Source of the DNA: a virus
Lineage: Duplodnaviria > Heunggongvirae > Uroviricota > Caudoviricetes
Virus record (IMG/VR): IMGVR_UViG_2695420427_000008
Location: 1-5,216 of that record
DNA length: 5,216 bases
Strand: one strand, 5' to 3'
The notes under the pieces are model-generated. The model had not been told where the DNA came from. It did no database searches and saw only the letters and a list, made by a program, of their open reading frames with translations. Below, in pieces: positions 924 through 5,216 of the stretch. A program made the position numbers and the translations under genes. Position 1 is the first letter of the stretch; each line of letters starts with the position of its first letter.

Positions 924-1232
924 GCCATTACAAAAGCCACTCCCTACAGAGTGGCTTTGATAATGGCTTATACCCTACACGGGATAACTTAACTGATATC
1001 CCTTTTAACGGATAAAGGTATTCAAGCCTGACACATCATGCGCTGTATCGTCGCCGTATTCCCGTATTAACAGAGACCGTAGCCCGACGGGGAACTCCTT
1101 CTGCGAGAGTGTGCGGGAATAATCAAAAACGATGCACACCGGGTTTTTACCGCGTTTATGGTTCGCGGGTTTGTCCCTCATGCTCGCCAGTCCTGTGCGA
1201 GGGTGGAAGAAACAGGACGTGTATTCAGGTCT

Positions 1233-1266
1233 GTGCGACCGTGGTCGCACGCATTTCTTTTATTGC
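1233..1266. promoter_or_regulatory. Perfect palindrome GTGCGACC-GT-GGTCGCAC followed by a T-rich tract; candidate operator or attenuator/terminator hairpin
   Basis: Positions 1233-1240 are the exact reverse complement of 1243-1250, followed by GCATTTCTTTTATTGC (1251-1266). It lies 13-30 nt upstream of the RBS/ATG of the small ORF at 1279. Confidence 0.4.
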
Positions 1267-1278
1267 TTTGAGGTAGAT

Positions 1279-1488
1279 ATGTCAGTTGCTGTTTTCGAGG
1301 CACTCAATGCACGTATTAACCAACTTGAAAGTAAGGTGAAGGAATACGAGCAGCGACAGGCTGAGGCAGATGAGAAGACTCAGAACGAACTTTTCCTGGA
1401 GTTTCTTGCCATCGTTCACGAACTGATGCCGTTAGTTAATCAGGCGCTGATGACAGGACTGAAGGATGGAGATTTACACAGTAGGTAA
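1279..1488 (+). CDS. Hypothetical small protein (69 aa), predicted largely helical/coiled-coil; accessory (moron-like) gene between lysis cassette and cos
   Basis: ATG 1279 is preceded by GAGG at 1270-1273 (5-nt spacing); stop TAA at 1486-1488. Product MSVAVFEALNARINQLESKVKEYEQRQAEADEKTQNELFLEFLAIVHELMPLVNQALMTGLKDGDLHSR. The ORF track's longer version from ATG 1132 has no RBS and reads across the palindrome, so the shorter start is preferred. No homolog recognised with confidence. Confidence 0.55.
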   Translation: MSVAVFEALNARINQLESKVKEYEQRQAEADEKTQNELFLEFLAIVHELMPLVNQALMTGLKDGDLHSR

Positions 1489-1537
1489 ACCTGATCTTCT
1501 GTCTTACGGGTCCTTTCCGGTGATCCGGAGCGTTACG

Positions 1538-1549
1538 GGGCGGAAGGCG
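1538..1549. other. cosN: cosN core (position of the 12-nt cohesive end); sequence here is GGGCGGAAGGCG
   Basis: Located by alignment to the lambda junction ...GTTACG | GGGCGGCGACCT | CGCGGGTTTTCGC. The window reads ...GTTACG GGGCGGAAGGCG CGCGGGTTTTCGC: same length, first 6 nt identical, last 6 nt differ (AAGGCG vs CGACCT as I recall lambda). Confidence 0.6.
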
Positions 1550-1589
1550 CGCGGGTTTTCGCTATTTATGAAAATTTTCCGGTTTAAGG

Positions 1590-2246: not shown

Positions 2247-2272
<26 letters not shown>
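1727..2272 (+). CDS. nu1: Terminase small subunit gpNu1
   Basis: 181-aa ORF MEVNKKQLADIFGASIRTIQNWQEQGMPVLRGGGKGNEVLYDSAAVIKWYAER..., near-identical to lambda gpNu1 as I recall it (N-terminal winged HTH that binds cosB). Same length as lambda Nu1 (546 nt). Confidence 0.97.

Positions 2273-5216
<2,944 letters not shown>

Follow-up and report, generated by a model that had tools for sequence, protein, structure and literature searches.

What is the small open reading frame that stands last before the cos site of this prophage: a gene of the lysogen, a late gene of the phage, or no working gene at all? The window, by which we mean the whole stretch of 5,216 nucleotides that was analysed, is the late region of a lambda-like prophage and contains the end of the R lysozyme gene with Rz/Rz1 (243-722), Nu1 (1727-2272; PF07471, E=4e-101), gpA (2247-4172) and, 3' of gpA, W and the start of B. 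The reading frame, hereafter ORF69, occupies the accessory slot that separates the lysis genes from cos, where the sequence-only reading had put it. That reading took ORF69 for the only convincing coding potential of the accessory segment, and in this it went too far: a 50-aa plus-strand ORF at 710-862 is conserved as well (phrog_11822, E=4.5e-35, annotated as of unknown function). This ORF overlaps the end of Rz, has a hydrophobic N-terminus, is annotated in PhiR70_1 and called in locus L062, and is followed by the strong terminator at 896-915. The common linker also holds a minus-strand ORF (1005-1250, 81 aa, or 58 aa from ATG 1181), which is annotated as a 57-aa protein in PhiR46_1, is a frameshifted pseudogene in strain Rb-50 and matched no family.

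ORF69 runs on the plus strand from 1279 to 1488 and consists of 69 codons and a stop, with the ATG at 1279-1281 and the TAA at 1486-1488, in agreement with the coordinates given earlier. The well-spaced GAGG Shine-Dalgarno sequence that had been pointed out is present at 1270-1273, with a 5-nt spacer to the ATG. Both GAGG and ATG are unchanged in every aligned locus of ORF69 and of the related 286-aa genes described below, while the adjacent bases vary, and the TAA is likewise invariant among the aligned ORF69 variants. Folding of 1215-1300 gave no support for a structure that would sequester the Shine-Dalgarno sequence (z=-0.9). The product, MSVAVFEALNARINQLESKVKEYEQRQAEADEKTQNELFLEFLAIVHELMPLVNQALMTGLKDGDLHSR, is a 7.9-kDa acidic protein (pI 4.8), and the expectation that it would be strongly helical is borne out by an AlphaFold2 model, which predicts a helix-loop-helix (helices 2-26 and 32-63) at a mean pLDDT of 85.5. 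Neither a transmembrane segment (maximum 19-residue hydropathy 1.27) nor a signal peptide was predicted for it. The length of ORF69 by itself is within chance, because the window holds many spurious ORFs of more than 69 aa. The case for a gene therefore rests on comparative data, namely the conservation of the ORF, its pattern of selection and the homology of its protein, and these indicate that ORF69 is very probably a genuine, translated small ORF that starts at ATG 1279.

The surroundings show where this ORF begins and ends as a genetic unit. PhiR70_1 lacks the segment 1221-1503 or has other DNA in its place, as does the linker copy of PhiR46_1 that lies nearer to cos, and homology to lambda near cos restarts only at 1504; ORF69 thus lies in a discrete mosaic module with homology breakpoints at about 1217/1220 and 1504. 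On its 5' side stands a conserved plus-strand flank (1040-1251), part of the lambdoid linker of about 923-1220, which matches PhiR46_1 (locus L004, 2753-2963) at 92% immediately 5' of the 286-aa gene of that phage and is common to such genes. The linker (923-1220) is very widespread. PhiR46_1 has two direct-repeat copies of it (2753-2963 and 4421-4713), which bracket the 286-aa gene and a 149-aa gene, and recombination between the two could delete or exchange this cargo.

On the 3' side the module adjoins a plus-strand block conserved with lambda (1504-1537) that contains cosQ. Positions 1504-1527 are identical to lambda 48469-48492 (100%), the equivalent 55 nt are annotated as cosQ/R4 in the phi80 record, and the 7-bp GGGTCCT at 1508-1514 is what we take, from the lambda literature, to be the cosQ core. 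The 12-nt cohesive end of cosN, GGGCGGAAGGCG, was located on the plus strand at 1538-1549 by alignment to the ends of the lambda and phi80 records and differs from their GGGCGGCGACCT at 5 of 12 positions. The gap between the stop codon and cosN measures 49 nt, close to the 50 bp estimated before. The same cohesive end GGGCGGAAGGCG occurs in PhiR46_1 and in loci L001, L002, L015, L016 and L063; the Citrobacter-type ORF69 loci have either the lambda-type end or GGGCGGGGACCT. Directly 5' of cosQ, lambda (L014), phi80 (L041), PhiR46_1 (L004), PhiR70_1 (L003) and loci L062 and L063 carry a Fur-box-like palindrome, GATAAT(N)ATTATCA, which is absent from the window (1489-1503), where the 3' end of the ORF69 module takes its place.

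The relatives of the product gave the clearest lead to its nature. The profile phrog_2571 (length 291, annotated as function unknown) matches residues 11-60 of ORF69 (E=1.3e-6), and in a tblastn search residues 12-59 were 39% identical to the N-terminal part of the 286-aa protein of Escherichia phage PhiR46_1 (XSB42772.1). The start of the 286-aa gene aligns within one residue of Met1, and an alignment of ORF69 with three long-family N-termini contains 18 invariant columns, with the motif QNEL[FY]xEFxxIVxELMPxxNxxLM. Judged by these alignments, residues 1-60 of ORF69 are homologous to the N-terminal hairpin of the 276-286-aa proteins of PHROG 2571, among them XSB42772.1, P0009 and P0017, in which this part would likewise form a helix-loop-helix. 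The long proteins are carried by lambda-like phages and phage-plasmids. Their genes have the same arrangement of 5' flank, hairpin, Shine-Dalgarno sequence and ATG as ORF69 and are, as it is, the last plus-strand gene before cos; from the end of the gene to Nu1 the distance is 285 nt for P0017 and 239 nt for ORF69. There are also differences. The shared domain is only 37-46% identical, and ORF69 is without about 220 residues of the long form, for which a disordered linker, a beta-rich middle and an alpha/beta C-terminal region are predicted. The AlphaFold2 model of the 286-aa protein has the same hairpin followed by these three parts, at a low confidence (pLDDT 60). The rest of the long protein is not encoded 3' of ORF69, where only 15 nt separate the stop codon from the cosQ block. 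What the sequence-only reading missed is that ORF69 most likely represents, on this comparison, a truncated, domain-only version of the 276-286-aa family.

In PhiR46_1 the 286-aa gene is followed by the 149-aa gene, which has no family match (L004, 2986-4419). The 286-aa gene was found on records labelled as plasmid in 14 of 35 places, and the ten records listed are mostly of about 46-48 kb, which suggests that they are phage-plasmids or circularised induced phage. A literature search on the PhiR phages found nothing useful.

The homology and profile searches that had been proposed for ORF69 did produce relatives, namely PHROG 2571 and the ORF69 clades described below, but no characterised match. 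Pfam, NCBIfam and PADLOC had no matches for either ORF69 or the 286-aa protein, with at most sub-threshold coiled-coil noise for ORF69 (e.g. ABC_tran_CTD, XhlA). Identity with XhlA (PF10779) was considered and rejected: the match scored 15.0 bits against a cut-off of 34.7, covered the coiled-coil part only and came without a predicted transmembrane segment, and since the product is acidic and soluble with no predicted membrane segment, the match is regarded as coiled-coil noise. A HMMER search of 1.84 billion representative proteins returned only the cluster of ORF69 itself and a 36-aa fragment, fold searches returned generic helical hairpins only, and a sequence profile run against the PDB returned only CoilSer-type coiled coils, none of them significant.

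How could such a short form have come about? The profile search revealed a second one, represented by P0027 and P0028, two proteins of 67 aa that prophages of Citrobacter freundii and E. coli encode. They share about 91% identity with the N-terminal part of P0017 (276 aa) and are encoded immediately 5' of terminase genes, in two types of packaging module. A comparison of loci L062 and L063 revealed a clean deletion of 675 nt, which starts at codon 65 of the long gene, ends 37 nt beyond its stop and joins the hairpin-coding part to the conserved element adjoining cosQ; the gene of P0028 equals that of P0017 minus these 675 nt. At the sequence level, the 67-aa form thus demonstrably arose from the 276-aa gene by deletion. 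Like ORF69, it consists of the hairpin only, is the last ORF before cos and ends a few codons past the conserved LMT motif. It belongs, however, to an independent lineage with about 42% identity to ORF69 and a different C-terminal tail, and its stop codon falls within the Fur-box-like element. Searches of 5.8 billion protein clusters and of the 1.84 billion representatives turned up no full-length protein with an ORF69-type N-terminus that could be the parent, and the origin of ORF69 therefore has to be deduced by analogy with the 67-aa form: most probably it also is a deletion derivative of a long allele, in which the C-terminal three-quarters would have been removed up to the left edge of cosQ.

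ORF69 is rare. Of 5,426 complete E. coli genomes, 10 contain the window segment 1250-1500, whereas most of a longer query (600-1700, linker included) has matches in about 4,900 of them. None of the records of complete E. coli genomes in this collection covers at least 80% of 600-1700, and the source prophage is therefore a mosaic that is absent from the collection. ORF69 occurs in 2 of 2.9 million IMG/VR contigs; single-sequence and profile searches of the GTDB species-representative genomes yielded no relatives, and scans of metagenomes and IMG/VR yielded the two known types only, with no intermediates. Strain RL465 carries a 100% identical copy on its linear 'plasmid III' (61.5 kb). The second clade, with 87-90% protein identity, is found in prophages of Citrobacter freundii and of other E. 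coli. These prophages have a wholly different lysis cassette (holin_8, holin_3_7 and a GH108 endolysin) and most of them a different Nu1. The block conserved between the clades corresponds to window 1040-1571 (about 87.6% nucleotide identity).

The synteny comparison across lambdoid prophages showed that ORF69 is kept intact, always with 69 codons and always as the last gene before cos, despite the varying lysis cassette and Nu1 type. The variants compared, 17 distinct DNA sequences found in E. coli, in Citrobacter freundii and in metagenomes, span at least four upstream contexts and two Nu1 types, and all encode 69 aa, with no indels, frameshifts or internal stop codons; the lack of conservation that had been named as fatal to the ORF was not encountered. 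The changes are distributed in the manner of a coding sequence. Among these variants, which hold only 28 changes, 14 synonymous and 14 non-synonymous changes were counted in the ORF69 frame (omega about 0.27, binomial P=8e-4, or about 0.01-0.02 after transition bias by a rough estimate that was not computed), as compared with an omega of 0.73-0.88, stop-involving changes included, in the two other forward frames. Between the two clades the pairwise dN/dS is 0.21, with a dS of about 0.21-0.24 that was judged, by alignment, to be similar to how far the upstream non-coding DNA has diverged. ORF69 is also the least variable segment of the block (0.13 changes per site versus 0.20-0.29 in the flanks), a between-segment comparison that lambdoid mosaicism can distort, and it has no indels as against several in the upstream non-coding DNA. 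This pattern of substitutions shows purifying selection on the ORF69 frame. Because both clades share the C-terminal tail and the junction with cosQ, the constraint has acted on the 69-codon form itself, and the pattern suggests that the product is still used.

These data have to be weighed against the sizeable, if somewhat less than even, possibility that ORF69 is a non-functional 5' stump of a PHROG-2571-type gene that is slowly decaying, left by a deletion bounded by cosQ; a stump of this kind may still be transcribed and even translated without serving any function. The 67-aa form provides the precedent, being a clean deletion derivative that evolves as neutral DNA would (2 synonymous and 7 non-synonymous changes, a ratio of about 0.9, with no sign of purifying selection), and further pieces of the long family, truncated, partial or frameshifted, have been recorded (P0025, P0026, P0029-P0032). 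Hairpin-only ORFs can thus persist as neutral remnants. The rarity of ORF69 in E. coli and the many phages with a near-identical gpA that do without it fit a remnant too, and a 210-nt ORF has, by our estimate, a fair chance of remaining open over about 15 substitutions. What a stump would not lead one to expect is the low omega of about 0.27 combined with fewer substitutions than in both flanks, in two clades that diverged after the truncation, or the invariance of the Shine-Dalgarno sequence, the start and the stop in an ORF free of indels beside non-coding DNA that has several. In addition, truncation has occurred twice independently, each time at a point no more than about 10 codons from where the hairpin domain ends. 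We therefore lean towards a product that is still used, and turn to the time of its expression.

In lambda, late transcription starts at pR' and depends on antitermination by Q. ORF69 has the same orientation as the lysis and head genes of the late operon, and it is preceded by two terminator-like hairpins on the plus strand, both detected in a terminator scan. The first of the accessory segment, at 896-915, is the stronger one. The second (1232-1265) has a stem in which 1232-1239 pairs with 1244-1251 (8 pairs and a 4-nt loop), followed by CATTTCTTTTATT; its U-rich tail ends at 1265 and the Shine-Dalgarno sequence starts at 1270. The pairing of this hairpin is retained in 96.9% of cells (9 distinct sequences), with one variant that breaks a pair. 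One pair changes from G-C to A-U and several single changes lead to G-U, which preserves the pairing only in the plus-strand RNA, so that the hairpin is supported by covariation. The palindrome that the sequence-only reading had assigned to ORF69 as its own is thus present at 1232-1251, but it resembles a terminator rather than an expression signal of the ORF. A consensus scan for sigma-70-like promoters found no site in 700-1760, a scan that a weak or non-sigma-70 promoter could escape, and a looser scan of 861-1300 found no promoter-like site either (8 of 12 matches at most). Given the two upstream terminators, the lack of a promoter-like site in these scans and the late-operon orientation, ORF69 would be read only by a Q-antiterminated late transcript, and judged by these signals its expression is more likely late and Q-dependent than in the lysogen.

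Taken together, our preferred reading, which we would call an even call, is that ORF69 is a translated, late, hairpin-only derivative of the PHROG 2571 family that possibly still binds protein. On circular or concatemeric DNA the late transcript would extend from the lysis genes over cos and on into Nu1, would pass the terminators at 896-915 and 1232-1251 before it reaches ORF69, and would be the only one to include it; translation would then start from the GAGG of the ORF itself. The product would be a soluble, acidic helix-loop-helix that most likely acts, as we may speculate, through protein-protein binding, either by self-association into a helical bundle or by pairing with the hairpin of a partner. 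Its role would be a non-essential late accessory function rather than a conversion function expressed in the lysogen.

Phage phi80 offers a parallel in the same slot. Its taiEcA gene, located there as well, is transcribed divergently in the lysogen from a promoter of its own, whereas AtiEcA (orf64) is an anti-Tai counter-defence protein that binds its cognate protein and whose gene was shown experimentally to be read in the Q-dependent late operon (PMC11364771). AtiEcA has 76 aa and is encoded on the plus strand, and its likeness to ORF69 is one of position and expression logic only. ORF69 has no BLASTP match to phi80 gp49-gp53, which include Tai and Ati, and no Tai-like divergent ORF was found to adjoin it. 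By analogy with the action of Ati on Tai, ORF69 might be an antagonist that mimics a domain: a stand-alone oligomerisation hairpin, made late, that would poison the 276-286-aa proteins of rival phages, be these lambda-like prophages or phage-plasmids, by pairing with their hairpin. We consider this unlikely, yet if it were true, the repeated truncation to exactly the hairpin domain would have been selected and not be accidental.

The suggestion that had been attached to ORF69 from the start, a gene for lysogenic conversion or superinfection exclusion expressed from the prophage like bor of lambda, fares worse and appears to us quite improbable. It is true that the slot carries such genes, as bor occupies it in lambda and DLP12 and taiEcA in phi80. 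However, bor and taiEcA are divergent and have promoters of their own, and bor is expressed in the lysogen, whereas ORF69 is co-oriented with the late operon, has no promoter-like site in either scanned region and has a terminator-like hairpin directly upstream rather than downstream. In addition, its product lacks a recognisable signal peptide or transmembrane segment. The reading of ORF69 as a late gene is thus itself evidence against the comparison with bor. The second suggestion, kinship with the small terminase-adjacent ORFs of the K-12 cryptic prophages, found no support in BLASTP or in the DUF3950 family. YbcW (identical to lambda p79) and YlcI/YnfO, encoded near nohD/Nu1 in these prophages and in lambda, resemble ORF69 in size (64-68 aa) and in belonging to the same lysis-terminase region, but ybcW and ylcI are located farther away from cos, and ylcI is encoded on the other strand. 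As candidate relatives they were rejected, together with YbcV and BorD: YbcW aligned at E=24, YlcI did not match at E<=100, a Pfam search gave no DUF3950 match at E<=1, and neither YbcV nor BorD had significant BLASTP similarity.

The start codon also has to be considered, because the RefSeq protein WP_229986656.1 is a 102-aa product that starts at ATG 1180. This start was annotated by PGAP in at least two genomes, the reading frame is open from 1132, and residues 1-27 of the extension match phrog_17397 (E=1.1e-6). We nevertheless hold it to be very improbable that the longer protein is the true product. The extension would span the terminator hairpin and its U-run, it is rich in Cys and Arg, and it lies within the linker of thousands of prophages that have no ORF69. 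A 1-nt insertion found in the Citrobacter-type clade and a second one in L016 disrupt or shift its frame and leave the 69-codon part intact; gene callers report 69 aa in the Citrobacter-type loci, and the homologous long genes begin at the position of Met 1279. On these comparisons the RefSeq model is probably over-extended by 33 codons, and a correction of its annotated start would follow from this analysis.

Least credible of all is that the segment is non-coding and kept as a cis-acting DNA or RNA element for the termination of packaging beside cosQ: its constant physical linkage to cosQ/cosN across lysis cassettes and Nu1 types could be read in that way, but the synonymous-site skew is confined to one frame, the protein remains 39% identical where no similarity can be detected in the DNA, packaging in lambda and most relatives takes place without the segment, and an Rfam scan of 600-1800 gave no score near any gathering score and hence no family match.

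ORF69 is, then, an accessory gene of phage, or the remnant of one, that is rare and of a fairly ordinary kind, and it is not a lysogenic-conversion gene. In this prophage the lysis-to-cos slot is more convincingly taken for a part of the late operon than for a lysogenic-conversion locus. If ORF69 is only a remnant, the finding is an ordinary one, of deletions in this slot that are bounded by cosQ. If the hairpin-only protein is functional, the phage would have kept nothing of a larger accessory protein but its interaction module, and ORF69 would offer a way into the function of PHROG 2571, a family that is always found in the last coding slot before cos.
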